Origin: Planctomycetota bacterium
GTDB lineage: Bacteria > Planctomycetota > UBA1135 > GCA-002686595
Length of the DNA stretch: 13,120 nt
Direction: 5' to 3'
Assembly (NCBI GenBank): GCA_011053145.1
Contig: DRLC01000329.1
Span: forward strand, 1-13,120
The position numbers were made by a program, and so were the translations under genes. A model generated the notes under the pieces. The model was not told where the DNA came from and searched no databases. It saw nothing but the letters and a program-made list of their open reading frames with translations. Numbering within the stretch: position 1 is the first letter of the stretch; each line of letters opens with the position of its first letter. Below, in pieces: positions 1 to 13,120 of this stretch.

Positions 1-1889
1 AAGCCGTCCTCGATGTACTTCTTCGCGTTGTCCCAGACCCCGCCGGCGTTCGACATGAAGATGGCCATCATCACGCCCGTGACGAGCGCTCCCGCGAGCA
101 TGCCGCCGAGGGCTTGGACGCCCAGGAACTTGCCCATCAGGATCGGAGCGGCGATCGCGAGAGCGCCGGGGACGACCATCTGCTTCAGGGAGCCGGCAGT
201 AGAGATCGCGACGCAGCGGGCCGGGTCGGGCTTGCCGGTGCCCTCGAGGATCCCCGGGATCTCTCGGAATTGACGGCGGATCTCATCGACCATCTCGCTG
301 GCGGCCTTGCCCACCGCGCGCATCGTCATCGCGCTGAACAGGAACGGCAGGAAGCCGCCGACGAGCAGCCCGATCATCACCATCTGGTTGTTGATGTCGA
401 GGGTCAGCTTGCCGGGGCCGGCGACGGCCTTCTCGCAGTAGGCGCTGAACAGAGCCAGTGCGGTGAGCGCGGCCGAACCGATCGCGAATCCCTTGCCGAT
501 CGCCGCGGTGGTGTTGCCGACCGCGTCGAGGGCGTCCGTGCGCTTGCGGACCTCCTCGGGGAGTTCGGCCATCTCAGCCATGCCGCCCGCGTTGTCGGCG
601 ACCGGGCCGTAAGCGTCGACACCGAGCGAGATGCCGAGGGTCGAGAGCATGCCGACCGCGGAGATCGCGACGCCGTACACACCCGCCTGGTCGTAGGAGA
701 CCCAGATCGCGACGCAGATCAGGAGGACCGGGAGTGCGACCGACTCCATGCCGGTGGCGAGGCCGTGGATGATGTTCGTCGCCGGGCCCGTCTTCGACTG
801 CGCGGCGATGTACTGCGCGGGCCGGGTCTCCTTCGCGGTGTAGTACTCGGTGACCTTGCCGACGAGAACGCCCGCCACGAGGCCGGAGATGACCGCATAG
901 AAGAGGTTCATCCCCTGGCCCTCGGGGAGTTCGAGCCCACCGTTCGTCAGCCACCAGCTGGCCCCGATCACGAGGACCGAGGCGACGATCAGGCCGCGGA
1001 AGAGGGCGGAGTGGAGACCGTGCTCGTCCTTCGCAGCGACGAAGAAGGTTCCGATGGCCGAGGCCAGGATGCCGCAGGCCGCCACGGCGAGGGGCAGGAG
1101 GACCATGCCTTCCACACCCGGCTGCCCCGCGAACAGCGCGGCGCCCAGGGTCATCGCGGCGATGATCGAGCCGACGTAGGACTCGAACAGGTCCGCGCCC
1201 ATGCCCGCGACGTCACCGACGTTGTCGCCGACGTTGTCCGCGATCGTGCCGGGGTTGCGGGGGTCGTCCTCGGGAATGCCGGCTTCGACCTTCCCGACGA
1301 GGTCGGCACCCACGTCCGCGGCCTTCGTGAAGATCCCGCCGCCGACGCGCGCGAAGAGGGCGATCGAAGAGGCGCCGAAGCTAAAGCCGAGGACCTGTTC
1401 GAGGACCCCCTCGGTGATCTGGCCGTCCACCGCATAGATCAGGGAGAAGCCCGAGACCCCGAGCAACCCGAGGCCGACCACGCACATCCCCATCACGATG
1501 CCGGAGCTGAAGGAGACGTGCAGAGCGTCCTGGAGGCTCTTCGTCGCGGCCTGGGTCGTGCGCACGGCTGCCCGTGTCGCGGTGTGCATGCCGAAGAATC
1601 CCGCGAGACCCGAGGCGACTGCCCCGCAGACGAACGCGACCGCGGTCTTTGCACCGAGGCCCTGGGCGGGGGAGAGCCCGATCGCCGCGGCCACCACGAT
1701 CACGAAGACGATCAGCCAGCGGTATTCGGCGAAGAGGAACGCCTTGGCGCCTTGCTGGATCATCACGGCGATGTCCTGCATCTTTTGGCTGCCGGCGTCC
1801 CACTTCATGATCCCGCCGTACTTGATGAAGGCGAAGACCAGCGCCAGAACGGAGAAGGCGGCGGATACGTAGAGGAAGGTGTTGTCCAT
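1..1889 (-). CDS. hppA: Membrane-bound proton-translocating inorganic pyrophosphatase (H+-PPase), K+-dependent type. The 3' end is truncated by the window edge; 629 codons are present.
   Basis: Reverse-strand translation starts with ATG (rc of cat 1887-1889) and reads [26 protein letters not shown]. It ends at the window edge with ...[19 protein letters not shown], the typical H+-PPase C-terminus. An internal [18 protein letters not shown] motif (Ala, not Lys, after GNTT) indicates the K+-dependent subfamily. There are multiple TM segments. The frame is open to position 3, so the six-frame track does not list it. Confidence 0.9.
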
Positions 1890-2212
1890 GTCCGGGCAGG
1901 GGGTGGGGGCTCGGTCGGAAGAGGTTCTTGGGGATTCGTGGCGAGGCCGGCATGTCCGGCTGGAGCCATCCGGTTCCTCGGGATCGAGGCCGGGTCCGAC
2001 GCGGTCGGGAACCGGGGATGTTCCGGGCGTCGGTCCAGAGGCTCCCGGGGAGCCGCACCTGGGGCCCACGGCCCGCTGCACCGACGATTTGGCGAAAGAG
2101 TCTAGAACGGACCCGCCACCTGTCAACGGCTGGGGGCCGATCCGGGTCGGGATCGCGAGAATGAGGCGTGATTTCGGGCTGATTCCCTCGTCGGGAGGAA
2201 GGCTTTTCCGCT

Positions 2213-2926
2213 CTAGCGGGGGAGCTGCGGTCCCTGCGCCTCGCCGCGCTCCGGGGGCGCGGAGCCTTCCGCCTGCCCCTGGCGGAGAGCCAGCTTGCGC
2301 GCTCTGCGAGCCAGCGATCGCCTCGTCCGCTGGCGCCGGTGCCGAACGACGAGGATCAGGGCCAGGGACAGGGCCAGGAACGCCAGGATCAGGTGCATGT
2401 CCTGCATCGTCCGCTCGAGTTCGTCCACCTTGCCCCCGAAGAGCTTGCCGAGGTAGATCGAGATCGGGACCGAGACCATCACCCCGAGGAAATCGAGCAG
2501 CAGGAACCGCGCGTAACGCATGCCCATGGTCCCCGCGAGGAAATAGCCGGGGATCCGGACCCCCGCGAAGAATCGGCACGCGAAGGTGGCCCAGTTGCCG
2601 TGCTCGTCGAAGCGCACCTTCATGCGTTCGAAGCGTTCCGGATGGATCAACCTGGCAACCCAGGGGATCTTCAGCGCGCTCGTGCCATACTTCCTCCCGA
2701 GCCAGAACGGGGCGGAGTCCCCCAGGAGAATGGCCACCGAGCACACCACCACGATGGGGATGAACTCGACCTCGCCGCGGTAGTACAGGATCCCCGAGCC
2801 GATCAGGGAGACCTCTTCGGGAAGGGGGAGTCCCATCCCGCACAGCACCAGCACCACGAAGGGGGCCAGGTAGCTGAATTCGCCGAAGATCCCGCTCAGG
2901 AAGCTAGTTTGCTCGATCCACCCCAT
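2213..2926 (-). CDS. DedA/SNARE-associated (VTT-domain) family inner-membrane protein
   Basis: 237-aa ORF with the hallmark DedA N-terminal layout (hydrophobic helix, then GLPLPEE... and FWLGRKYG). It has a highly basic C-terminal tail. Confidence 0.85.
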
Positions 2927-3065
2927 GGATAATCCAACTCAATGGAGCGTGGAGTATAGGGAGGAGAAAGCGCAATCGAGGGACGAGTTGGGGTGAATGC
3001 TCGGCGCTGGGCCGGGTTCAAGAAGGCCCCTCCGCCCGCCGGGAGAGTTCTGTTCCTCCACCGCC

Positions 3066-3069
3066 GAGG
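3066..3069 (+). promoter_or_regulatory. Shine-Dalgarno GAGG, 7 nt upstream of the ATG at 3077
   Basis: ccgccGAGGttctgacATG. It supports 3077 rather than the upstream GTG at 2993 as the start of the YqiJ-like gene. Confidence 0.5.
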
Positions 3070-3076
3070 TTCTGAC

Positions 3077-3679
3077 ATGCAGGAAATCTGGGAATCGATT
3101 CGGGGCTGGGCCAGCGAGAACCTGACCGAATTCACCCTGACGAAGATTTACATCGCCTGTGCGATTGCGGGAGGGACCGTCCTGGTCGGGCAGACCGGTC
3201 TGAACCTCTTCGGCTTGGGCGGGGACTCGGACATCGATCCTGATGTCGATGTCGACGATCTCGAAGGCGGAGACTCGCTCAGCTTCCTTTCGATCCGGGC
3301 ACTTGCCGGTTTTCTGACCTTCTTTGGTCTCGTCGGCTGGGGTGGCACCGCGTCGGGTTGGGGAGCCGGCATCACGATCGGCGCTGCCTTCTTGGCCGGT
3401 GCCTCGGTGATGGTCTTCGTCGCCCTGATGATGCGCTTCTTCCGCCGCATGGCGATGTCCGGCACGGTCCGTCCCGCCGAGGCGGTTGGGCTCAGCGCCC
3501 AGGTCTACCTTCGGATCCCCGCTTCGAACTCGGGCAAGGGGAAGATCACCGTGAAGCTCCAGGGGCGCAGCCAGGAATTCGATGCGGTGACCCGCGGTCC
3601 CGAACTCCCGACCGGAAGCGCCTGTCGGATCGTCGCCATGCCCACGGAAGGAACCTTCGAGGTGGAGCCCCTGGAGTGA
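3077..3679 (+). CDS. YqiJ / NfeD-like inner-membrane protein (DUF1449-type) with a C-terminal OB-fold
   Basis: The N-terminal TM helix is followed by an acidic GGDSDIDPDVDVDDLEGGD segment, two Gly-rich TM helices and a soluble beta-rich C-terminal domain (KITVKLQGRSQEFDAV...). This is the architecture of E. coli YqiJ-type NfeD-like proteins that partner flotillins. It is followed 50 bp later by the flotillin gene. The six-frame ORF begins at GTG 2993; the ATG at 3077 has a GAGG SD, and 2993 would leave only 66 bp to the divergent DedA start. Confidence 0.75.
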   Translation: MQEIWESIRGWASENLTEFTLTKIYIACAIAGGTVLVGQTGLNLFGLGGDSDIDPDVDVDDLEGGDSLSFLSIRALAGFLTFFGLVGWGGTASGWGAGITIGAAFLAGASVMVFVALMMRFFRRMAMSGTVRPAEAVGLSAQVYLRIPASNSGKGKITVKLQGRSQEFDAVTRGPELPTGSACRIVAMPTEGTFEVEPLE

Positions 3680-3718
3680 AGGTTTCCCCACGAGTTCCGT
3701 ACGCCCCGAGAACCCCAT

Positions 3719-3724
3719 AGGAGG
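3719..3724 (+). promoter_or_regulatory. Shine-Dalgarno AGGAGG, 5 nt before the flotillin ATG
   Basis: cataGGAGGAccccATG. Confidence 0.65.
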
Positions 3725-3729
3725 ACCCC

Positions 3730-5436
3730 ATGCAGATGCTTGCCAGTCTCTCGGTTTATCCAGTGCTCGCTCAGAACTCGATCCTCGGTGGAAGTGTGGC
3801 CTGGGGACTGATCCCGATCGCGATCGTCCTCGTCCTCTTCGCGCTCGTCGTCGCGCTTTCTCGGCGCTACAAGCGCTGCCCCTCGAACCGGATCCTGGTT
3901 CTCTACGGGAAGACCCGTAGTGATCGAGCCGCTCGGCCGATCCACGGGGGTGGCGTCTTCGTGATGCCGATCATCCAGGACTACCAGTTCCTATCGCTCG
4001 ATCCGATGCAGATCGAGATCCCGCTGGAAGGCGCCCTCTCGATCGAGAACATCCGCGTTTCGGTGCCCTCGGTCTTCACGGTTGCGATCGGAACCGAGCC
4101 CGAGGTCATGACCAACGCGGCCATTCGCCTTCTCGGCCTCTCGACGCAGGAGATCATGAAGCAAGCCGAAGACATCATTTTCGGCCAGCTCCGCCAGGTC
4201 ATCGCTTCGATGCGGATCGAGGAGATCAACCGGGACCGGGACATCTTCCTGTCCAGCGTTCAGAGTTCCCTGGAGCCCGAGCTCCGCAAGATCGGTCTTG
4301 TCCTGATCAACGTGAACATCAAGGACATCACCGACGAGTCCGGTTACATCGAGGCCATCGGGCGCAAGGCCGCGGCCCTCGCGATCAACCAGGCCGAGGT
4401 CGATGTGGCCGAGCAGCAGAAAATGGGGGCGATCGGAATCGCGAACGCGGAGCGCGAGCGCGCGATCCAGGTGGCCGAATACGAAAAGACCCGGGACATC
4501 GGGACCAAGGCCGCGGAGCAGGAGCGTGCGGTCTCCATCGCCGAACTCGAGAAGGAGGAATTGGTCGGCCAAAAGAAGGCGAAGTACGAGCAGGAGGCCC
4601 TGATTCGGGACCAAGAGCGGGAGATGCGGATCCGGGTGGCTCAGGCCAATGCGGAAGCCGTGGAGGGCGAGAACGAAGCCAAGGCCAAGGTCGCGATCAC
4701 GAACGCGGACCTCAAGATGCGCGAGGCCGAAGCCTTCGAGCGCAGCGAGTCGCGCTCCCGCGAGGCGAACGCGGCCGTGCTCGAGGCGCAGTACCGAGCC
4801 GAAGCGCGTGCCGCGGCCGCGGAGGCGGAGAAGATCGAGGCCGAGAAACGTGCCCAGCTCGAGGCGGTGTCGCGCGCCGAAAAGGCCAAGACGATCGTCG
4901 ATGCCGAGGCCGCCGCTGCGATGAAGAAGATCGCCGCGGAAGCCGAGGCCGCCGCGATCTTCGCGAAGATGGAAGCGCGGGCGCGCGGCGAGTACGAGCT
5001 GCTCGCGAAGAAGGGAGAAGGCCTGAAGCAGATCGTCCAGAACTGCGGTGGGTCGCAGGAGGCATTCCAGATGCTCATGCTCGAGCACCTCGACCACCTC
5101 TCGGAGACCGCGGCCAAGGCGATCGCGAACATCAAGTTCGACAAGGTCATCGTCTGGGACGGCGGCCAGAACGGCGAGGGGAGCGGGAACGCGACCTCCA
5201 ACTTCCTCCGCGGCCTCGGAACCTCGCTGCCGCCGATGCTTCAGATCATGAAGGACATCGGTGGGATCGAGATGCCGGATTATTTCGGCCGGCTGATGAG
5301 TCCCGACGAGCCGGAGAAGACGATCCAGCCCCAGGCGGCACAGGCACCCGACGCCCCGGAGGGGGATCCCGAGAAGGTCGCGTCGGTGTCCGATGGAACG
5401 GACGGGCCGGACGCAGGGAAGGGCGCCGGGTCCTGA
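3730..5436 (+). CDS. Flotillin-family SPFH/band-7 protein (YqiK/FloT-like), 568 aa
   Basis: N-terminal TM helix; SPFH domain (ILVLYGK..., GGVFVMPIIQDYQFLSL, EIPLEGALSIENIRVSV); then a ~250-aa Glu/Ala/Lys/Arg-rich coiled-coil region (AEQQK..., EAEKRAQLEAVSRAEKAK...) and an acidic disordered tail. Strong SD. Operon partner of the NfeD-like gene. Confidence 0.9.
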   Translation: MQMLASLSVYPVLAQNSILGGSVAWGLIPIAIVLVLFALVVALSRRYKRCPSNRILVLYGKTRSDRAARPIHGGGVFVMPIIQDYQFLSLDPMQIEIPLEGALSIENIRVSVPSVFTVAIGTEPEVMTNAAIRLLGLSTQEIMKQAEDIIFGQLRQVIASMRIEEINRDRDIFLSSVQSSLEPELRKIGLVLINVNIKDITDESGYIEAIGRKAAALAINQAEVDVAEQQKMGAIGIANAERERAIQVAEYEKTRDIGTKAAEQERAVSIAELEKEELVGQKKAKYEQEALIRDQEREMRIRVAQANAEAVEGENEAKAKVAITNADLKMREAEAFERSESRSREANAAVLEAQYRAEARAAAAEAEKIEAEKRAQLEAVSRAEKAKTIVDAEAAAAMKKIAAEAEAAAIFAKMEARARGEYELLAKKGEGLKQIVQNCGGSQEAFQMLMLEHLDHLSETAAKAIANIKFDKVIVWDGGQNGEGSGNATSNFLRGLGTSLPPMLQIMKDIGGIEMPDYFGRLMSPDEPEKTIQPQAAQAPDAPEGDPEKVASVSDGTDGPDAGKGAGS

Positions 5437-5457
5437 ATCCCGAGTCGCGGCGGGCGG

Positions 5458-6399
5458 CTACTGGTCGCTCGCCGCTTCCTTCGCCGAGACGATGATGCCG
5501 TTCTCGACGATGAGCTCTCCGGGCGTCGTGATCACGTAGGTCAGCGAGTCGGGGAGCTCGGCGTGCTGCACGAAGCCACCTTCCGGCATGAGGTGGACCA
5601 CGCGGTTCGCCTCGTTGTCCGTCTTTTCCTCGAGCCGTACCAGCGTCACCATGCGCTCGCCCACCTCGGTCTGCGCGAGGTGCGCCAAGTGCGCAGCGCA
5701 GTGGTCGCACGTCGTGCGATAGAGGACCCAGATCCCGTCGGGGATCAGGGAGTCGAGGTCGATGAAGTCCGCGAGCGGCGTCTCATCGAGCGACTTGCCG
5801 ACCCAACTCTCCACGTCGAGTTCCAGCCAGCGCTCGCCCGCGCCCGAGTCTTCCGTGCTGTGTGCGATGCCCGGTTCCGCGAGGGTCGTCACCTGGCGGT
5901 CGAGGAGCCAGGGCAGGACGGCGACCGCGGCGAGCGTCGGCGCGAGCACCAGGGTCGGGATACGCCGTGGAGCAAGGCGCCAGGGGCGGGCGGCGAGCAT
6001 CGCGACGAGCAGCCCCGAATCGATCCCGAGCATCACCGCCGGGGGGAGGGAAACCTTCGAGCCGAAACACCCGCAGCTCGGTGCGTCGAGCATCCGCACG
6101 AGGATCGCGTCGAAGACGAGGAATACGAGCCCGAGGCCGATCCAGCCGCGTCGGGGCACGAGCAGCGCCAGCGCGGCGATGACGAGTTCGATCGTGATCG
6201 CACCGTTGTAGGTCAGCCCGAGCTCCAACGGGAACTCGCGCACGATCGGGGGCAGGTCGTTCGGCGTTCCGAGGAAGAGCTTGAAGAGCGCGCCGGCGAG
6301 GAGCCACAGGGCCCCGAGGGTCACGGCGAGGACCGCCAGCGGGCGTCGTTCGCCGGCAGCGGAGGCGCCGGTCGGGGGGGTCGGGGGCTCGGATTCCAT
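5458..6399 (-). CDS. MauE/DoxX-like redox-associated membrane protein fused to a C-terminal thioredoxin-like (CxxC) domain
   Basis: Five predicted TM helices with an intramembrane SCGCFG motif (MauE-family signature), followed by a soluble domain carrying WVLYRTTCDHCAAHL (CxxC, thioredoxin-fold type). Start chosen at the ATG (rc of 6397-6399, MESEPPTPP...). In-frame alternatives are ATG 6478-6480 and GTG 6553-6555; the longest form would overlap the divergent acyl-CoA synthetase start. Confidence 0.7.
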   Translation of the reverse strand: MESEPPTPPTGASAAGERRPLAVLAVTLGALWLLAGALFKLFLGTPNDLPPIVREFPLELGLTYNGAITIELVIAALALLVPRRGWIGLGLVFLVFDAILVRMLDAPSCGCFGSKVSLPPAVMLGIDSGLLVAMLAARPWRLAPRRIPTLVLAPTLAAVAVLPWLLDRQVTTLAEPGIAHSTEDSGAGERWLELDVESWVGKSLDETPLADFIDLDSLIPDGIWVLYRTTCDHCAAHLAHLAQTEVGERMVTLVRLEEKTDNEANRVVHLMPEGGFVQHAELPDSLTYVITTPGELIVENGIIVSAKEAASDQ

Positions 6400-6529
6400 T
6401 GGGCGGATCGGGGCTCGGTTCGGGCCGGGAAGGGTCGCCGGAGGATACGGACGCTCGGCGACGCCTGCGAGTGCCGCCATCCGATGGGCTGGGTCGGGTA
6501 CGCTCTCACCGCCACGAGAACCAGAAGAG

Positions 6530-8044
6530 ATGATCGTCCGCTTCCTGATCGACACCGCCGCGCGAGACCCCGACGCGCCCGCCGTGATCTCGGGAACCGA
6601 ACGTCTTTCCTACGGCGAACTCCTCGAGGCGGTCCGGCGCGATGCGGCTCGGCTCCATGGTGCCGGTGTCCGTGCAGGGAGCCGCGTCGCCGTCCTCGAC
6701 GCGAACACGGTCGGTTTCCTGATCTCGACCTTCTCGGTCGCCTGGCTGGGGGCAGTCCTCCAGCCCCTGAACACGCGCCTGTCCCCCCGAGAGCTCGCCG
6801 AAATCCTGCGGGATGCGGAGACGAAGGTCCTTCTCGCCGGCGAATCCCTGCGCTCCACGGCCGAGCCCCTCGCGCGGGAGGTCGAGGGCCTGGAGGTCCT
6901 CGACTGCGGGCACCCCTTCGGTGCGAGACCGGCGGCGCAGCTCCCCACGCCGGACCCCGTCCCCCGCGATCCCGGGTCCCTGGCCCACCTCTACACGACG
7001 AGCGGGACCACCGGGCGCCCCAAGGGGGTCTGCCTCACCCACGGGAACGTCGTGGTCCACGCGCGCAACGTCGTGCGGGAACTCGGGATCGGGCCGGGTG
7101 ATCGCTGGGGTCACTTCGCTCCGATGTTTCACCTCGCCGATGCCTGGGCGAATCTAGCGCTGACCCTCGTGGGCGGCGTGCATGTGCTGCTCCCGCGCTT
7201 CGATGCCGACGCGGCGCTCGAATGCATCGAGCGCGATCGCGTGACGTTGACGAACCTCGTCCCGACGATGCTCACGCGTATGGTCGCCGCCGCTACCAAG
7301 CGCTCCTTCGATCCGGCGAGCCTGCGGCTCATCCTCTCCGGCGGCGCGCCGATCACACCGGCCCTCGTGCGCCGCGTGCTTCAGACCTTCCGGTGCGAGT
7401 ACGTGCAGACCTACGGCATGACCGAGACGAGCCCGTACCTCACCCTCGGCATCCTGACCGATGAGCTGCGGGCTCTCCCCGAACCCCAGCGCCTCGCCTA
7501 TCTCGCTCGCACCGGACGGCCCTTCGCCGGGATCGATCTCGAGGTGGTTGACGAGCAGGGGCGCGAAGTCCCGAGGGATGACCGCACCGTGGGCGAGATC
7601 CGCGTGCGTGGCGCCAGCGTTTCCCCAGGCTATTGGCGACGGCCCGAGGAGACGCGCGAGGTGTTCCGCGACGGCTGGCTCTACACCGGAGACCTTGCGG
7701 TGATCGAGGAACACGGTTACGTGAACATCGTCGATCGGAAGAAGGACATGATCCTTTCCGGCGGAGAAAACGTGTACTCGGCCGAAGTGGAGAGCGTGCT
7801 CGCGGAACATCCAGCCGTGCAGGAAGTGGCCGTGTTCGCGCTCCCCGACGAGGACCTCGGCGAGCGCGTCGCCGCGGCGATCGTGCTGCACGAGGGAGAG
7901 CGCGCGGAAGAGTCCGAACTCCGGGCCTGGTGCCGGGAGCGCATCGCTCACTACAAGGTGCCACGCGAAGTGCGGTTCCTCGAGGAGCTTCCCCGGACCG
8001 GTTCCGGCAAGGTTTCGAAGAAGGTGCTGCGCGAGGGGCGGTAG
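6530..8044 (+). CDS. AMP-dependent synthetase/ligase (acyl-CoA synthetase, FadD-like)
   Basis: AMP-binding motif I YTTSGTTGRPKGV, TYGMTETSP, GWLYTGDLAV...VDRKKDMILSGGENVYSAEVE, and C-terminal GKVSKKVLR. The six-frame ORF starts at 6281 with an R/G-rich leader; the conserved N-terminus MIVRFLIDTAARDPDAPAVI begins at ATG 6530. Confidence 0.9.
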   Translation: MIVRFLIDTAARDPDAPAVISGTERLSYGELLEAVRRDAARLHGAGVRAGSRVAVLDANTVGFLISTFSVAWLGAVLQPLNTRLSPRELAEILRDAETKVLLAGESLRSTAEPLAREVEGLEVLDCGHPFGARPAAQLPTPDPVPRDPGSLAHLYTTSGTTGRPKGVCLTHGNVVVHARNVVRELGIGPGDRWGHFAPMFHLADAWANLALTLVGGVHVLLPRFDADAALECIERDRVTLTNLVPTMLTRMVAAATKRSFDPASLRLILSGGAPITPALVRRVLQTFRCEYVQTYGMTETSPYLTLGILTDELRALPEPQRLAYLARTGRPFAGIDLEVVDEQGREVPRDDRTVGEIRVRGASVSPGYWRRPEETREVFRDGWLYTGDLAVIEEHGYVNIVDRKKDMILSGGENVYSAEVESVLAEHPAVQEVAVFALPDEDLGERVAAAIVLHEGERAEESELRAWCRERIAHYKVPREVRFLEELPRTGSGKVSKKVLREGR

Positions 8045-8084
8045 CGGGCGGCGAATCCCCCTCGGTGGTTCCGATCGACAGCGG

Positions 8085-8109
8085 CATGGGGCAGGATCTT
8101 GTCCCCATG
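8085..8109 (+). promoter_or_regulatory. Hairpin (7-bp stem catgggg/ccccatg, 11-nt loop) spanning both candidate start codons of the TerC gene
   Basis: Stem 8085-8091 pairs with 8103-8109. The ATG at 8086 and the ATG at 8107 lie in opposite stem arms. Possible translation-initiation control, or a weak 3' stem for the upstream synthetase gene. Confidence 0.3.
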
Positions 8110-8823
8110 GATTGGCTGACATCCCCGGACGCCTGGATCGCGCTCCTGACCCTGACCCTCCTCGAGATCGTCCTGGGTGTGGACAACCTCGTCTTCCTCT
8201 CGATCCTCTCGGGGCGGCTGCCCGCCGAGCGCCAGGCGAGTGCGCGCCGTATCGGTTTGGGCCTGGCGCTCGTCGGCCGCATCGCGCTGCTCTCCTGTGT
8301 CGCCTGGTTGATGCGGCTCGAGAGCCCGCTCTTTCACGCCTTCGGCCGCGACATTTCGACGCGCGATCTGATCCTGCTCGCCGGGGGGCTCTTCCTGCTC
8401 TTCAAGGCGACCCACGAGATTCACGGAAACATGGAGGGAGACGGCGAGGAAGCGCCGCGCTCCACGAATCCGCCGAGCTTTTCCTCCGTCCTCCTGCAGA
8501 TCCTGGTGCTCGATCTCGTCTTCTCCCTGGACTCGGTGATCACCGCCGTCGGCATGGCGGACGATCTCGGGGTCATGATCGTCGCCGTCGTCCTGGCGGT
8601 CGTTTTCATGATGTGGACCGCCGATGCCGTCGCGGACTTCATCGAGAGGCATCCCACCGTGAAGATGCTCGCCCTCTCGTTCCTTCTCCTGGTCGGAACC
8701 GCGCTGATCGCCGACGGCCTCTCGTTCCACATCCCACGCGGCTACATCTACTTCGCGATGGCGTTCTCGGTCTTCGTCGAGGTCTTGAACCTCAGGAGCG
8801 GTGCCCGCCGCAGGACGCCCTAG
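8107..8823 (+). CDS. TerC-family integral membrane protein (short YkoY/Alx-like form, ~238 aa)
   Basis: MDWLTSPDAWIALLTLTLLEIVLGVDNLVFLSIL... is the canonical TerC N-terminus. There is a second VLDLVFSLDSVITAVGM repeat half and ~7 TM segments. The track ORF (7633) is over-extended into the synthetase; the in-frame ATG at 8086 is an alternative start. Confidence 0.85.
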   Translation: MDWLTSPDAWIALLTLTLLEIVLGVDNLVFLSILSGRLPAERQASARRIGLGLALVGRIALLSCVAWLMRLESPLFHAFGRDISTRDLILLAGGLFLLFKATHEIHGNMEGDGEEAPRSTNPPSFSSVLLQILVLDLVFSLDSVITAVGMADDLGVMIVAVVLAVVFMMWTADAVADFIERHPTVKMLALSFLLLVGTALIADGLSFHIPRGYIYFAMAFSVFVEVLNLRSGARRRTP

Positions 8824-11308
8824 TCTTTCCACTCCTTCGTTGCGTCCCATGCTGCTCTTCCCCGTCGTCTACGCCTTCCTCAGCTCTTTCGCGCCGCAGC
8901 AGGCGGCCCCGGTGACCACTCCGCAGGCCTACCTCGGCCGGCCCCTGGGGCGTGACTTCGAGCTCGCGGACTGGGACGAGGTTTCGGGGTACTACCGGCG
9001 CCTCGCGGCGGAGAGTCCCTGCGTCCGCGTCGAGTCGCTCGGTCCGACCACCGAGGGCCGGGACTTCCTGCTCGCGGTCATCGCGAGCGAGCAGCACATG
9101 GCGCGCATCGACGAAATCCGTGCCGACTCCGCGAGGATCGCCGATCCGCGTCGTCTCGCCGGGGCCGGCGCGGGGGAGCTCGATGAGCTGTTCGAACGCA
9201 CGCCCCCGACGCTGTTCCTCTCGCTCGGTATGCATTCCACCGAAACCGCCGCACCGCAGTTCGGGATGGAACTCGCCCACCTTCTCGCCACTTCGCAGGA
9301 GGAGCCCTACCGCAGCGCGCGCGAGGAACTCGTCCTCCTGATCGCGCCCTGCTTGAACCCGGACGGGCTCGATCGCGTCGTGTCTTGGTACCGGGAAACC
9401 GTCGGCACGCCCTATGAGTCGGCGGATCTCCTCGAGCTCTACCAGCACTACGCCGGCCACGACAACAACCGCGATTGGTTCATGCTCTCCCAACCGGAGA
9501 CGCGCATGGTCACCAAGGCGCTCTACCACGATTGGTTTCCGCAGGTCTACTGGGACGTTCACCAGCAGGGGACCCACCGCGAAAGGCTCTTCGTTCCGGC
9601 CTTCCGCGATCCGCTCGACCCGAACCTCGATCCAGGGATCATTTCGGGCATCGGGAACCTCGGCGCCCGGGCCCTGTTCGACATGACGCGCGACGGCTTT
9701 CGCGGAGTGTCCACCGGCGTCACCTATGACATGTGGTGGAACGGCGGCAACCGCAACGTGCCCGTGCGTCACAACATCATCGGGTTGCTCACCGAGGCTG
9801 CGTCCGTGAACCTTGCGTCGCCGATCTTCCTGTCGAGGGAATCACTCGCGGCGCCGCGCGGGCTCGGCGAGTATGCGCCCTCGAATCGCTTCCCGGCGCC
9901 GTGGCCCGGCGGCTGGTGGCATCTGCGAGACATCATCGATTACGAACACGGCTTCGCTCGCTCGCTCCTCGCGAGCCTCGTGCGCGAACCGCGCCTGTGG
10001 CTCGAGAACGCGTATCAGTCGGCTTCGCGCGCGCTCGAACTCGGCGGCCGCGATGCTCCCCGCGCGTGGATCCTGCCGAGCACGAACCGCGATGTGGCGG
10101 CGGCGCGCCGGCTCGTCGACGCGCTCCTGCTAGGGGGCGTCGAGGTGCAGGTCGCGAAGGGGTCGTTCCGCGCCGACGGGCGCGAGTGGCCGGCCGGTTC
10201 GGTCGTGATCCTGCGCGCTCAACCCTACGGACAGCACGTCAAGGACCTCTTCGAGGTGCAGCGCTACCCCGAAGGCACGCCCCCATACGACGTCTCCGGC
10301 TGGACGCTCCCGATGCTTCTCGGAGTTCGGCGGGTCGAGGTGATGCGGGAGTTCGACGCCGAGCTCGAAAACGTCCAGGACGCCCAGGCCGCGGTCGCCG
10401 CATTCGGCGACGGGACGCGCAGCGACGGAGCCTGGGGATCGGCGGCCAACGGTGACACCTGGGTCCGGGTGTTCCGGGATCTCACGCGGGGAAAGCCCGT
10501 CGTGTTCCGTCCCGCTTCCCCCGACCAGGACGGCGCCTGCTTCGAGTTCTCTTCCCGCGAGGGCGGCGAGGAGATCGAATCGATGCCGAGGGTCGGGCTC
10601 TATGCTCCCTGGAGCGGGAGCATGGACGAGGGTTGGACGCGTTTCGTGTTCGATCGCTTCGGCGTCCCCTATATCGGGGTGCGCAACGAGATGCTGCGCG
10701 CCGGCGACCTTTCCGATTTCCTCGACGTCTTGGTTCTTCCGAGCCTCTCCGCCCACGAACTCGATGAAGGTCGCGCGCCGGGCAGTGTCCCCCCCGAGTT
10801 CGCGCGCGGACTCGATCCCGAGGGCGCGGTGGCGATCGAGGCCTTCGTGCGCTCGGGGGGCAAGCTCGTGGCGATCGAGTCCGCGGCCTCATGGGCGATC
10901 GACCTGTTCGAGTTCCCGCTCACGGACCTGACCCGGGGGGAGGAAGGATCGGACTTCTCCTGTCCGGGGAGCGTGTTGCGGGCGATCCCGGAAGGGTCGG
11001 GCGACTTGAGCGCCGGAATCGCCGATTCCGTTGCGCTCTTCTTCTCGCGCTCCGCGGCCTGGCGCTTGGAGGAACGCGAAGACCCCGAGACGGGCGATGC
11101 CCCTCAGCCGGAGGTGCTCCTGCGCTATGCGCCGACGCGGCTGCTCCTGTCCGGCTGGATCCGCTCTCCCGAAACGATCGAGGGTGCCATCGCCTGGGCT
11201 CGTTTCCCCCACGGAAAGGGGAGTGTCGATCTGTTCGGTTTCCGGCCGCAGTACCGTGGGTGGTCCCAGGGCACTTTCCAGCTTCTGTTTCGCTCCCTCC
11301 TCTTCTGA
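8801..11308 (+). CDS. M14-family zinc carboxypeptidase, large multidomain form (835 aa), secreted
   Basis: The N-terminus resembles a signal peptide (basic n-region, hydrophobic MLLFPVVYAFLSSFA, then AP/QQAA). The M14 catalytic core carries the zinc-ligand motif GMHSTE (HxxE), NPDG, GHDNNRDW, VHQQGTHRE and GLLTEAAS (candidate catalytic Glu), followed by ~500 aa of additional domains. Start is GTG 8801, overlapping the TerC 3' end by 23 bp with AGGAG at 8794-8798; the ATG at 8849 is the alternative. Confidence 0.8.
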   Translation: MPAAGRPSLSTPSLRPMLLFPVVYAFLSSFAPQQAAPVTTPQAYLGRPLGRDFELADWDEVSGYYRRLAAESPCVRVESLGPTTEGRDFLLAVIASEQHMARIDEIRADSARIADPRRLAGAGAGELDELFERTPPTLFLSLGMHSTETAAPQFGMELAHLLATSQEEPYRSAREELVLLIAPCLNPDGLDRVVSWYRETVGTPYESADLLELYQHYAGHDNNRDWFMLSQPETRMVTKALYHDWFPQVYWDVHQQGTHRERLFVPAFRDPLDPNLDPGIISGIGNLGARALFDMTRDGFRGVSTGVTYDMWWNGGNRNVPVRHNIIGLLTEAASVNLASPIFLSRESLAAPRGLGEYAPSNRFPAPWPGGWWHLRDIIDYEHGFARSLLASLVREPRLWLENAYQSASRALELGGRDAPRAWILPSTNRDVAAARRLVDALLLGGVEVQVAKGSFRADGREWPAGSVVILRAQPYGQHVKDLFEVQRYPEGTPPYDVSGWTLPMLLGVRRVEVMREFDAELENVQDAQAAVAAFGDGTRSDGAWGSAANGDTWVRVFRDLTRGKPVVFRPASPDQDGACFEFSSREGGEEIESMPRVGLYAPWSGSMDEGWTRFVFDRFGVPYIGVRNEMLRAGDLSDFLDVLVLPSLSAHELDEGRAPGSVPPEFARGLDPEGAVAIEAFVRSGGKLVAIESAASWAIDLFEFPLTDLTRGEEGSDFSCPGSVLRAIPEGSGDLSAGIADSVALFFSRSAAWRLEEREDPETGDAPQPEVLLRYAPTRLLLSGWIRSPETIEGAIAWARFPHGKGSVDLFGFRPQYRGWSQGTFQLLFRSLLF

Positions 11309-11314
11309 ATCTTG

Positions 11315-11902
11315 ATGGGACCTCGCTCCGCCCTCCTGCTCCTGTGTTTCGCCGCGAGCTGCCAGGTCACCCACCTCGTCGACCCGGCTCCCGAACCGAG
11401 TTCCCACCTGGAGACACGCCGAACCTGGTACGTGAAGGGTGAGGTGCCGCGCACCGAAATCGTGCTGCGCGTCTTCGACGACGGGCGCGCGGTGCAGGAC
11501 GGGGCGAAGCGCAACTGGTACTCGAACGGGCAGATGGAATCGGAGCGATTCCAGACCGACGGTCGCGGGTACGGGACCTGGAGGAGCTGGTATCCCGATG
11601 GGACGCTCCGATCGTCGGTCGAGATCGGCGATGGCCGCTCCCTGCTCCCGATGACCTTTTGGCACGAGAACGGCCGGGAGGCGGCCTCCGGGTTCGGGAT
11701 CGATGGAGTGCGAGAGGGGGCGTGGGTGTATCGGAGGGCGGACGGAAGCATCGAACGGCGCGGCGAGTTCCGCCACGGACTGCGCGAAGGCCGCTGGGAG
11801 TTCTTCGACGGCGCGGGGCGAGTGGTCGAGGAGCGCCTCTATCGGGAGGGAAAGCGCATCGAGACGATTCGGCGCGAGGAGGACGGGGCAGCGTCTCAGT
11901 AG
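11315..11902 (+). CDS. Lipoprotein with MORN-variant (MORN_2 / 'YwqK-family') repeats
   Basis: Signal peptide with lipobox LLLLCFAASC. Repeated G-x-W-x-x-WY-x-NG/DG-x-L units (WYSNGQMESERFQTDGRGYGTWRSWYPDGTL..., GAWVYRRADGSIERRGEFRHGLREGRWEFFDGAG). The ATG is 6 nt after the M14 stop; the track start at 11312 is TTG. Confidence 0.75.
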   Translation: MGPRSALLLLCFAASCQVTHLVDPAPEPSSHLETRRTWYVKGEVPRTEIVLRVFDDGRAVQDGAKRNWYSNGQMESERFQTDGRGYGTWRSWYPDGTLRSSVEIGDGRSLLPMTFWHENGREAASGFGIDGVREGAWVYRRADGSIERRGEFRHGLREGRWEFFDGAGRVVEERLYREGKRIETIRREEDGAASQ

Positions 11903-12381
11903 GGACGTCGATCGGGACGCGTTGCGTAGGACCGTAGGAGGGCCTGCGCGCGCTCGTTCTCGACGCGCCGCCATCCCACCCCCTCCGGGGAACCTTCGCC
12001 CAGGGCCACCGAGCGCAGCGCCCGATAGAAGCGCTCGTCATCGAACCCGGCAGCGGCCGCATCCCGGCGGTCCGCGGCGAATACGATCATGTCCACACGC
12101 GCCCAGAGAGAGGCACCGAGGCACATCGGACAGGGTTCGCAGCTCGCGTAGAGGATCGTCCCGCTGAGGTCGTGGGTGCCGAGGGCGCGAGCCGCCCCGC
12201 GGAGCGCGACGACCTCCGCATGGGCGCTCGGGTCGAGGTCGGCGAGGACGCGGTTCGCACCGCGCGCGACGATCTCGCCGTCCCGCACCACCACGGCGCC
12301 GAACGGGCCGCCGCCGGAATCGGCGGACTCCTCCGCGAGCCGCAGCGCCTCCTCGAGGAATCGGTCCGTGGCGTGCCCCAT
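11896..12381 (-). CDS. guaD: Guanine deaminase of the cytidine-deaminase fold (GuaD-like nucleoside/nucleobase deaminase), 161 aa
   Basis: GGPFGAVVVRDGEIVARG, DPSAHAEVVAL (HAE zinc/catalytic motif), ILYASCEPCPMCLGASLWAR (PCxxC zinc motif) and IVFAADRRDAAAAGFDDERFY closely parallel the B. subtilis GuaD pattern as I recall it (...CEPCPMCLGAIYWAR...DAAEAGFDD...). TadA-like tRNA deaminase cannot be fully excluded. Start taken as ATG (rc of 12379-12381) rather than the track's GTG at 12420. It is convergent with the MORN gene and overlaps it by 7 bp. Confidence 0.8.
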   Translation of the reverse strand: MGHATDRFLEEALRLAEESADSGGGPFGAVVVRDGEIVARGANRVLADLDPSAHAEVVALRGAARALGTHDLSGTILYASCEPCPMCLGASLWARVDMIVFAADRRDAAAAGFDDERFYRALRSVALGEGSPEGVGWRRVENERAQALLRSYATRPDRRPY

Positions 12382-12393
12382 AGCCTGCCATCT

Positions 12394-12652
12394 TAGCCCG
12401 GATTCTTCATGAGCCAGCACCCCAGACTTCGCAATCGACCGCCTTCGGCGGTCTCTCGGCCCCTGACGGCACTTTGCGATTCCTGCCGTCCTCGTCGACC
12501 CGTCAAGGGGGGATCCCCTTTCCAGGGATCCACTGGATCCCTTGAATCCGCTTCGCGGACCGGGGCTTACCTTCCGGGGTCAGGAATCGCAAAGCACCAT
12601 CAGGAAACGAGTTGCTGCGCCTGGTGCACAGGCTCATGAAGAACCCGGGCTA
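12394..12652. repeat. MITE-like / structured non-coding element bounded by a 22-bp terminal inverted repeat (21/22) with nested internal inverted repeats
   Basis: Left arm 12394-12415 tagcccggattcttcatgagcc; right arm 12631-12652 ggctcatgaagaacccgggcta, which is its reverse complement with one mismatch. An inner perfect 14-bp IR pairs 12472-12485 ctttgcgattcctg with 12581-12594 caggaatcgcaaag. Local hairpins: gaccgcc-ttc-ggcggtc (12437-12453), gacggca/tgccgtc (12465-12471 with 12484-12490), tccgc-ttc-gcgga (12547-12559). Central GGATCC palindromes ×3 at 12507-12541. No ORF of any plausible size. TA dinucleotides sit at both extreme ends. Confidence 0.55.
12507..12549. repeat. Cluster of three GGATCC-centred palindromes/hairpins (ggggggatcccc; agggatcc-act-ggatccct; followed by gaatcc)
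   Basis: GGATCC at 12511-12516, 12526-12531 and 12535-12540. The first is a perfect 10-bp palindrome ggggatcccc. The second and third form an 8-bp-stem hairpin with a 3-nt loop. Confidence 0.5.
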
Positions 12653-12678
12653 GGGCGAGGCGGAGCAAAAGGCTTCAC

Positions 12679-12697
12679 CCGCCCGTAGGATGGGCGG
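12679..12697 (+). promoter_or_regulatory. GC hairpin (ccgccc-gtaggat-gggcgg) ending 2 nt upstream of the methyltransferase ATG, covering the likely SD (AGGA)
   Basis: 6-bp all-GC stem with a 7-nt loop. The loop contains the only purine-rich SD-like sequence before the ATG at 12700. An in-frame TAG at 12685-12687 fixes 12700 as the first possible start. Confidence 0.35.
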
Positions 12698-12699
12698 CG

Positions 12700-13120
12700 A
12701 TGTCTTGCGGCCACGAACCCGAGCTCGAGATCCTCCAGGGTGAAAACCTCGCGGTCCTGCGCTCGCTCCCCGCCGCGAGTTTTCACCTCGCCTATGTCGA
12801 TCCGCCCTTCAACACGGGCAGGAAGCGGCGGCTCAGGAGCGTGGCGACCGAGCGCGATGCCGCGGGGAAACGGGTCGGCTTCGGCGGGGAGCGCTACCGC
12901 GAGAGTGTGCGCAGCGACATCGCCTACGGGGATACCTTCGACGATTACCTGGGCTTTCTGGCCGAGCGATTCCGCGAGGCGCGGCGCGTCTTGACCGACA
13001 CGGCGAGCCTGTTCGTCCATGTCGACCCACGTGAGTCCCACTACGTCAAGGTGATGCTCGACGAGCTCTTTGGACGGGAGTGCTTCCGCAACGAGATCAT
13101 CTGGGCCTACGACTTCGGCG
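12700..13120 (+). CDS. Beta-class site-specific DNA methyltransferase (N6-adenine/N4-cytosine, PF01555-type), N-terminal 140 aa; continues beyond the window
   Basis: ILQGENLAVLRSLPAASFHLAYVDPPFNTG (motif IV DPPF at the N-terminus is the beta-class order), then FVHVDPRESHYVKVMLDELFGRECFRNEIIWAYDFG. There is no stop before the window edge. Confidence 0.85.
   Translation, partial: MSCGHEPELEILQGENLAVLRSLPAASFHLAYVDPPFNTGRKRRLRSVATERDAAGKRVGFGGERYRESVRSDIAYGDTFDDYLGFLAERFREARRVLTDTASLFVHVDPRESHYVKVMLDELFGRECFRNEIIWAYDFG

Follow-up and report, generated by a model that had tools for sequence, protein, structure and literature searches.

The question raised by positions 12394-12652 of the window, that is, the whole 13,120-nt stretch of Planctomycetota DNA analyzed here, is what kind of element is represented by a 259-bp nested inverted repeat lying between divergent genes for a deaminase and a DNA methyltransferase. 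A preliminary description, made from the letters alone, had put two readings on an equal footing, a miniature inverted-repeat transposable element (MITE) of the Tc1/IS630 type and a structured RNA or retron-like locus. The former is upheld here by dispersed copies, TA flanks and a related site without the element, whereas the latter is not supported, with no Rfam match, no reverse transcriptase gene called in 29 kb of the source contig and copies at non-orthologous sites. In our assessment, the repeat is very probably one copy of a family of non-autonomous DNA transposons (MITEs) present in Planctomycetota and in a few other GC-rich bacteria. It occurs in several copies, has moved on an evolutionary time scale, has conserved ends flanked by TA, and is missing from the nearest syntenic locus. 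Judging from its termini and flanks, a MITE of the TA-duplicating IS630/Tc1-mariner type is the most likely assignment, and we infer the transposase family, the cut-and-paste chemistry and the effects on neighboring genes discussed below.

The source is a 42,996-bp contig (k127_1278118) of a Planctomycetes metagenome-assembled genome (MAG), from the hydrothermal-vent metagenome assembly ENA ERZ940665, of which 29 kb was read (record 14185-42996). The element is of an ordinary kind, and the family seems undescribed; full-text literature searches turned up no description of it, and it is absent from Rfam. Only the stop-codon-restoring ends and a strand-biased pattern of wobble pairs go beyond the ordinary.

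Copies at other loci and the site without the element

A second, partial copy was detected in the last 130 nt of the source contig (L001 3-128), which lie beyond the window, at 8.2 kb from the copy inside it; the contig breaks off within this second copy. Its identity to the window copy is 97.6% over the initial 127 nt, with a different flank. It was further observed (L001 1-130) to lie 13 nt past the stop codon of a 332-aa gene and to carry TG at the position expected for TA. No further copies were found in another 8 kb of the source contig. Contigs from other samples also break off inside copies (L042, and L002, which comes from a second sample and carries the same deaminase), as expected, since the element is a repeat.

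Moreover, the terminal 20-mer (GCCCGGRTTCTTCATGAGCC) was scanned against one genome per species, and 12 loci were recovered. Six were true relatives, located on four contigs of the Planctomycetota MAG OFTM281, one contig of the Planctomycetota MAG OFTM79, and one contig of a Myxococcales MAG. With looser matching and more flanking DNA, at least eight copies with unrelated flanks were recognized in OFTM281 (GCA_029259605.1), on four contigs: three in L004, one in L008, one in L009 (the same place as L041 11546-11726), two in tandem in L012, and one at L041 2833-3013. The Myxococcales MAG (SB9154_S3_bin_3) carries one copy (L003), and a metagenome scan with the same 20-mer yielded two true members among 20 loci (L017 and L020). 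Dispersed copies with conserved termini and TA flanks, which the preliminary description had named as the mark of a MITE, were thus found.

Ends of roughly 20 bp (GCCCGGRTTCTTCATGAGCC) are common to all family members, and alignments revealed that only these termini are conserved across subfamilies, while the interiors vary in length (168-259 bp; 168-203 bp for the relatives of the window element) and largely in sequence. A short core motif (TCGACGACCCGTCAAGG) is also common to the Planctomycetota subfamilies. Furthermore, the terminal repeat comes in two variants (GGGTTCTTCATGAG and GGATCATTCATGAG), each of which can stand at the left or the right end, depending on the copy, within a single subfamily (L004b, L004c and L009). 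In L009 the right arm is a near-perfect complement of the left arm. This distribution suggests that ends, or copies, have undergone exchange or conversion with one another. The OFTM79 copy (L006 1344-1438) is a deletion derivative of ~95 bp, in which the left end and the core motif are intact and the right end is reduced to its last ~8 nt; it lies between one gene's TAG stop and the start of another gene, which begins MPIYEYK.

Matches to the 20-mer at the other six of the 12 genome loci and at 18 of the 20 metagenome loci were attributed to chance, having no TA flank or second arm and, in many cases, being clearly coding. In L005, L011, L014, L015, L022, L023, L025, L028, L030 and L031 the coincidental match falls in a conserved ...SPGFFMSL... 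sequence of Accumulibacter-like genomes and similar metagenome contigs, and the match in L010, a terminator-like hairpin, was likewise discarded. The terminal repeat gave no match in a scan of viral contigs, the whole element gave none in a plasmid collection searched by blastn, and no copies were present in the related deaminase loci L036-L038 and L040.

The site without the element was provided by the closest relative of the deaminase, which is 73% identical and was recovered from a search of 5.8 billion proteins. Its contig (L035) is syntenic with the source, with the same downstream MORN_2-like gene and the same divergent methyltransferase, whose N-terminus reads MNRESGIELEIVQGENLEVLRSL... 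in L035 vs MSCGHEPELEILQGENLAVLRSL... in the window. In L035, the start-to-start spacer is 29 nt long and holds no element. By this comparison, the element is absent from the ancestral arrangement, in which the duplication itself is not visible. Since both spacers are too diverged, L035 does not give a base-by-base empty site; it does give, from a distant relative (73%), the gene pair without the element that the preliminary description had proposed to look for among orthologous spacers. Other relatives of the deaminase have different neighbors, and no exact empty site was recovered for the L009 copy, whose flanking sulfatase had no relative closer than 60% identity in the search made.

Target site, stop codons and architecture of the element

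The features of the window copy are as follows, each with the evidence on which it was placed.

12394-12395: left TA, presumed target-site duplication; the preceding host base is T, giving the target T-TA-G, and Y-TA stands before GCCCGG in 11/11 complete copies with flanks read.
12396-12650: MITE proper, 255 bp from terminal G to terminal C; second copy in the contig, relatives in other genomes, no element at the syntenic L035.
12396-12415, + strand: left terminal inverted repeat (GCCCGGATTCTTCATGAGCC), presumed transposase binding site; the sole block conserved in all subfamilies, its exact 20-mer having fetched the family from genome and metagenome collections.
12416-12434: left subterminal arm, pairing with 12612-12630; its sequence varies by subfamily, with complementarity to the partner arm retained.
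12437-12453: side hairpin GACCGCC-TTC-GGCGGTC, on the left arm only; seen in the sequence and in the folds, and also in copy L004a.
12455-12485: inner inverted repeat, left arm, holding the perfect 14-mer 12472-12485; repeat finder.
12486-12508, + strand: core motif (CCGTCCTCGTCGACCCGTCAAGG), with the counterpart TTCGACGACCCGTCAAGGTCGCC in the OFTM281 subfamilies; sets the orientation of the element; alignment.
12509-12580: central segment of small hairpins with three GGATCC (12511, 12526, 12535), specific to the window subfamily; missing from the 168-203-bp relatives, its start present in the second copy of the source contig.
12547-12559: second TTC-loop hairpin; read off the sequence.
12581-12611: inner inverted repeat, right arm; repeat finder.
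12612-12630: right subterminal arm, partner of 12416-12434; repeat finder and arm comparison.
12631-12650, - strand: right terminal inverted repeat (GCCCGGGTTCTTCATGAGCC on the - strand); terminal-repeat search, copies compared.
12651-12652: right TA, presumed target-site duplication, followed by host G; flank reading.

All 11 complete copies with flanks read have TA on both sides, in the arrangement Y-TA/GCCCGG...CCGGGC/TA-G (slashes mark the element ends). In 9/11 copies the flanks are also readable as CTAG/CCCGG...CCGGG/CTAG; in the remaining two (the window copy and L004c) the left side is TTAG and the right side is still CTAG. Because these TTAG-left copies keep CTAG on the right, a 2-bp TA duplication with element ends G...C fits better than a 4-bp one, a discrimination provided by two informative copies. 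Read in this way, the flanks fit a TA duplication at a (C/T)TAG target, as for IS630. Members of the IS630 family insert at TA and duplicate it (PMC2170065), and a preference of IS630 for the TA of 5'-CTAG-3' is stated in the title of Tenzen and Ohtsubo (1991), as cited there (PMC2170065).

In this context, a transposase encoded elsewhere would bind the roughly 20-bp terminal inverted repeats (GCCCGGRTTCTTCATGAGCC), excise the element and paste it into the TA of a (C/T)TAG sequence, duplicating the TA in the manner of IS630/Tc1-mariner elements. Each insertion would rebuild CTAG or TAG at both ends, so that a TAG stop would be kept and new target sites made. At the present locus, the insertion would have entered the short spacer between the divergent deaminase and DNA methyltransferase genes, and the junction before insertion, in the deaminase sense, would read ...GCCTCGCCC-TA-AGATGGCAGGCT...

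Given the terminal G and C of the element, CTAG is rebuilt on both sides after insertion into C-TA-G. The rebuilt CTAG would thus keep the stop of a single gene, or both stops where two convergent genes have a CTAG in common. Element ends coincide exactly with the TAG stops of long open reading frames (ORFs) with a strong coding signature in L004b, L012a, L017, L003 and L006. Moreover, at L009 3666-3846 and L041 2833-3013, between convergent genes, both element ends lie on TAG stops, each formed by the TA flank together with the terminal G/C of the element, implying that these genes originally shared one CTAG. One target site would also become two through the rebuilt CTAG, which fits the tandem arrays, where the junction shares a single TA (L012 4430-4661) or TCA (L020 1-251); tandem copies are expected if the CTAG rebuilt at an element end is itself a target. 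In the source genome, CTAG is depleted about seven-fold, with 13 sites observed vs about 94 expected in 30.8 kb (L001 and L039), and TA is also depleted (281 observed vs 844 expected). The family thereby exemplifies a TA/CTAG-specific element in a GC-rich, CTAG-depleted genome, piling up at gene ends where its termini restore stop codons. Within the window, CTAG occurs at 2102, 2213, 2904, 7154, 8820, 10130 and 12650, and several of these sites are the ends of listed ORFs (e.g., 2102-2105, 2213-2216 and 7154-7157).

The nested inverted repeat of 259 bp (12394-12652) was found largely as the preliminary description had drawn it. The 22-nt terminal repeat (TAGCCCGGATTCTTCATGAGCC) pairs 12394-12415 (+) with 12631-12652 (-) with one mismatch, where no match was expected from 200 shuffles, and the repeat finder extended the outer arms beyond the length given earlier, to 41 nt at 78% complementarity (12394-12434 and 12612-12652). 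The inner repeat reaches 31 nt at 81% (12455-12485 and 12581-12611), with the perfect 14-mer inside; the asymmetric spacers of 56 and 36 nt between the two levels are visible in the sequence, most of this asymmetry being due to the side hairpin at 12437-12453, which occurs on the left arm only. Both TTC-loop hairpins and the three central GGATCC sites were likewise located where described. Folded as RNA, a 276-nt region containing the element gave -149.5 kcal/mol (z = -10.2) on the + strand and -174.5 kcal/mol (z = -11.7) on the - strand, and 0/200 shuffles were as stable in either sense.

In agreement with a non-autonomous element, the 259 bp carry no conserved coding sequence, the 76-aa ORF having no Pfam match. 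Each strand carries an uninterrupted frame across the element, from ATG to TGA, codons that lie within the TCATGA of the terminal repeats. A small-protein hypothesis was rejected, since the peptides differ from one subfamily to another and match no Pfam family, and since frames would be expected to stay open at such a GC content.

Among known systems, RUP of Streptococcus pneumoniae is an accepted IS630-type bacterial MITE (IS630-Spn1 type), for which an IS630-family transposase acting in trans has been proposed as the mobilizer; it resembles the present family in being small and non-coding, with terminal inverted repeats, TA insertion and many intergenic copies (PMC2229807). Compared by description and not by sequence, RUP is 107 bp long and AT-rich, with ends that match IS630-Spn1, whereas the elements found here are 168-259 bp long and GC-rich, with no partner insertion sequence (IS) found. 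IS630 and ISY100, of the Tc1-mariner-IS630 superfamily, have a TA target with duplication, to which the Y-TA...TA-G of 11/11 complete copies corresponds, the ends being compared by target site only. IS630 elements are about 1.1-1.2 kb long and encode a DDE transposase, whereas the window element encodes nothing conserved.

Alternative readings

Several points weigh against an IS630-type MITE. No autonomous partner was found: in none of the fetched loci are two matching ends separated by more than about 260 bp, and no gene called in the 29 kb read of the source contig has a transposase Pfam family on record; consequently, the target site is the sole basis of the family assignment. L021 and L034 were also inspected as candidates for a full-length IS, and neither showed an evident ORF resembling a transposase. 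The gene pair lacking the element belongs to a relative at 73% protein identity with an unalignable spacer, the TA duplication is read from the flanks, and copies are few, two being documented in a source genome of which part of one contig was read. In addition, plain cut-and-paste of double-stranded DNA does not predict the strand-biased mismatches between the arms.

This bias was assessed by aligning the left arm to the reverse complement of the right arm and sorting transitions by the sense that gives a wobble pair. In the window, L004, L008 and L012 copies, nearly all arm mismatches are transitions, which read as G·U on the window - sense and as A·C on the + sense. The counts (favored : other sense) were as follows.

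Window: 9:1
L004a: 5:0
L008 type: 8-9:0-1
L009: 3:2
L017: 2:5
L020b: 6:2
L003: 3:12, orientation uncertain

As to what the bias may mean, it is possible that the folded single-stranded form of propagating copies, RNA or single-stranded DNA (ssDNA), is under constraint, that the left and right ends inherited differences from a parent IS, or that chance acted together with shared ancestry; about a dozen copies are too few to separate these three explanations. Local replication or transcription cannot explain it, because copies inserted in opposite orientations on a single contig (L004b vs L004c) both show the bias.

The first of these explanations would turn the hairpin into the functional unit of the MITE. 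Propagating copies would then have to fold single-stranded in one sense, either as RNA with a role in spread or regulation (e.g., as an RNase III substrate or a regulator of mRNA, as for Correia/NEMIS and ERIC) or as an ssDNA transposition intermediate. We regard this as unlikely, although it is the most substantial of the alternatives; such a requirement, if true, would be unexpected for a TA-duplicating element with terminal inverted repeats. In its favor, the 259-nt element folds much better on the - strand (-170.3 kcal/mol, with 9 G·U pairs) than on the + strand (-143.5 kcal/mol, with 2), the same sense folds better in L004a, L004b, L004c, L008 and L012a, and the mismatch bias of the window, L004a and L008 types is found in copies of both orientations and remains at about 18:3 when shared positions are counted once (p about 0.001-0.002, our binomial estimate). 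Complementarity of the arms is also retained, with 16/40 pairs of the outer stem changed on both sides between subfamilies and 0/500 shuffles reaching the observed values. However, copies of the same subfamily do not count as independent and some of the bias is inherited, with 25-26 as the only positions clearly inherited by all three biased subfamilies. L009, L017 and L020b show little or no bias and L003 points the opposite way, with its orientation uncertain. Furthermore, in three copies lying in the 3' region of a single gene (the second copy of L001, L004b and L012a) the co-transcribed sense is the one that folds more weakly. The covariation, for its part, compares paralogous copies of a mobile palindrome and not orthologous spacers, and a need for the two ends to be bound by one transposase would likewise lead them to change in concert.

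MITE hairpins that act as RNA on neighboring mRNAs have been described (PMC2229807). Correia/NEMIS elements of Neisseria, MITEs of the 100-160-bp class, form a whole-element hairpin when transcribed and lie near gene ends or starts, like the present element, and they can alter the expression of neighbors through RNase III processing and promoter-like ends (PMC2229807). They belong to another sequence family and host phylum, and the integration host factor (IHF) site, promoter and RNase III processing are features of Correia/NEMIS. ERIC/IRU elements of enterobacteria are likewise imperfect whole-element palindromes, with no sequence relation to the present family; they are co-transcribed with neighbors, and their effect on mRNA stability depends on orientation (PMC2229807), to which the strand-biased wobble pairs are a possible parallel.

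Another origin, a little less probable still, is from an IS5-family element (IS5 or IS427 group) with a 4-bp CTAG/YTAR duplication in place of the IS630-type TA. The reading CTAG/CCCGG...CCGGG/CTAG fits 9/11 copies, and MITEPsy1 of Pseudomonas syringae, which is IS5-related, small and has terminal inverted repeats, duplicates its CTAG or YTAA target (PMC3189936). MITEPsy1 duplicates 4 bp, whereas the two TTAG/CTAG cases found here argue for 2 bp, since neither the window copy nor L004c, with TTAG on the left and CTAG on the right, shows an identical 4-bp (or 3-bp TNA) duplication. Moreover, no IS5-like partner was found in the fetched loci.

We consider it very improbable that the locus is a dedicated structured non-coding RNA gene, a riboswitch-like leader of the deaminase or a retron msr/msd locus. 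The extremely stable fold and the multi-hairpin apex would suit such an RNA, the better-folding sense is that of the deaminase, and the element proper ends 12 nt before the deaminase start codon. Against this, the nearest syntenic deaminase-methyltransferase locus has no element, and homologous copies stand at unrelated loci, often 3' of genes or between convergent genes. The Rfam search suggested in the preliminary description was run with Rfam 15 and gave 0 matches at the gathering score in the window and eight related loci, and a permissive threshold applied to the window returned only chance-level matches (E above 3); the structured-RNA claim was thus not borne out. The genes called over 29 kb of the source contig include no reverse transcriptase (RVT family), and none was found beside the L041 copy.

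The position between divergent genes and the many short palindromes, including the three GGATCC, could also evoke an immobile, single-locus operator of divergent promoters. This reading can be practically dismissed, being refuted already by the dispersed copies, since the element is multi-copy, with conserved TA-flanked termini at unrelated sites, and is absent at the syntenic locus; in addition, GGATCC is not rare in the window (12 sites, against an expectation of about 4.5). These 12 sites range from 248 to 12535. A tie between the GGATCC cluster and the methyltransferase, as in a BamHI-like system, was rejected as well, considering that the first site also occurs in the second copy, that an orthologue of the methyltransferase exists without the element, and that GGATCC is not avoided. 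Finally, REP units are described (PMC3733652) as 20-40-nt palindromes tagged GTAG or CGTC with no target duplication. A REP/REPIN element mobilized by RAYT was discarded on account of the YTAG/CCCGG ends with 20-22-nt terminal inverted repeats and TA flanks, with no genome-wide search for RAYT made.

Neighboring genes and consequences of the insertion

The MITE is flanked in the window by two host genes.

11896-12383, - strand: nucleoside/guanine deaminase, dCMP_cyt_deam_1 (Pfam PF00383); the start codon is backed by the gene call and by the N-terminus of the orthologue.
12700-13120, + strand: N6/N4 DNA methyltransferase, N6_N4_Mtase (Pfam PF01555); truncated by the window end, 284 aa in the full contig.

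The genes called in the part of the source contig that was read (29 kb) are ordinary housekeeping genes. The distance of 47 nt between the element and the methyltransferase ATG agrees with the preliminary description, whereas the 12 nt given there for the deaminase applies to the element proper, the outer TA lying 10 nt from the deaminase ATG. The spacer between the two genes is now 316 nt, of which 257 nt correspond to the element plus one TA, and by this arithmetic it would have measured about 59 nt before the insertion.

As a consequence of the insertion, the deaminase lies 257 bp further from its former upstream DNA and from the methyltransferase side. If the deaminase is transcribed from beyond the element, its leader carries the more stable hairpin sense (about -170 kcal/mol), ending 10 nt before the AUG. 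Such a leader hairpin could affect processing or translation of the deaminase, as reported for Correia/NEMIS and ERIC (PMC2229807), and the locus offers a testable case of a MITE reshaping expression. As to the suggestion of the preliminary description that both divergent promoters may be affected, 12200-12900 was scanned against consensus motifs; neither a sigma-70-like promoter nor an intrinsic terminator was detected there, and hence none in the element.

With regard to annotation, a conspicuous RNA-like palindrome in a Planctomycetes MAG can be recorded as a mobile repeat rather than as a riboswitch, retron or operator, and repeats of this sort explain contig breaks in these metagenome assemblies. 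Should the strand-biased wobble hold genome-wide, it would be a hint that a MITE with terminal inverted repeats passes through a single-stranded stage.

Outside the element, a host-derived hairpin (CCGCCC-GTAGGAT-GGGCGG) occupies window positions 12679-12697, and 2 nt separate its end from the start codon of the methyltransferase (3 nt when counted from the final base of the hairpin to the first base of the ATG).

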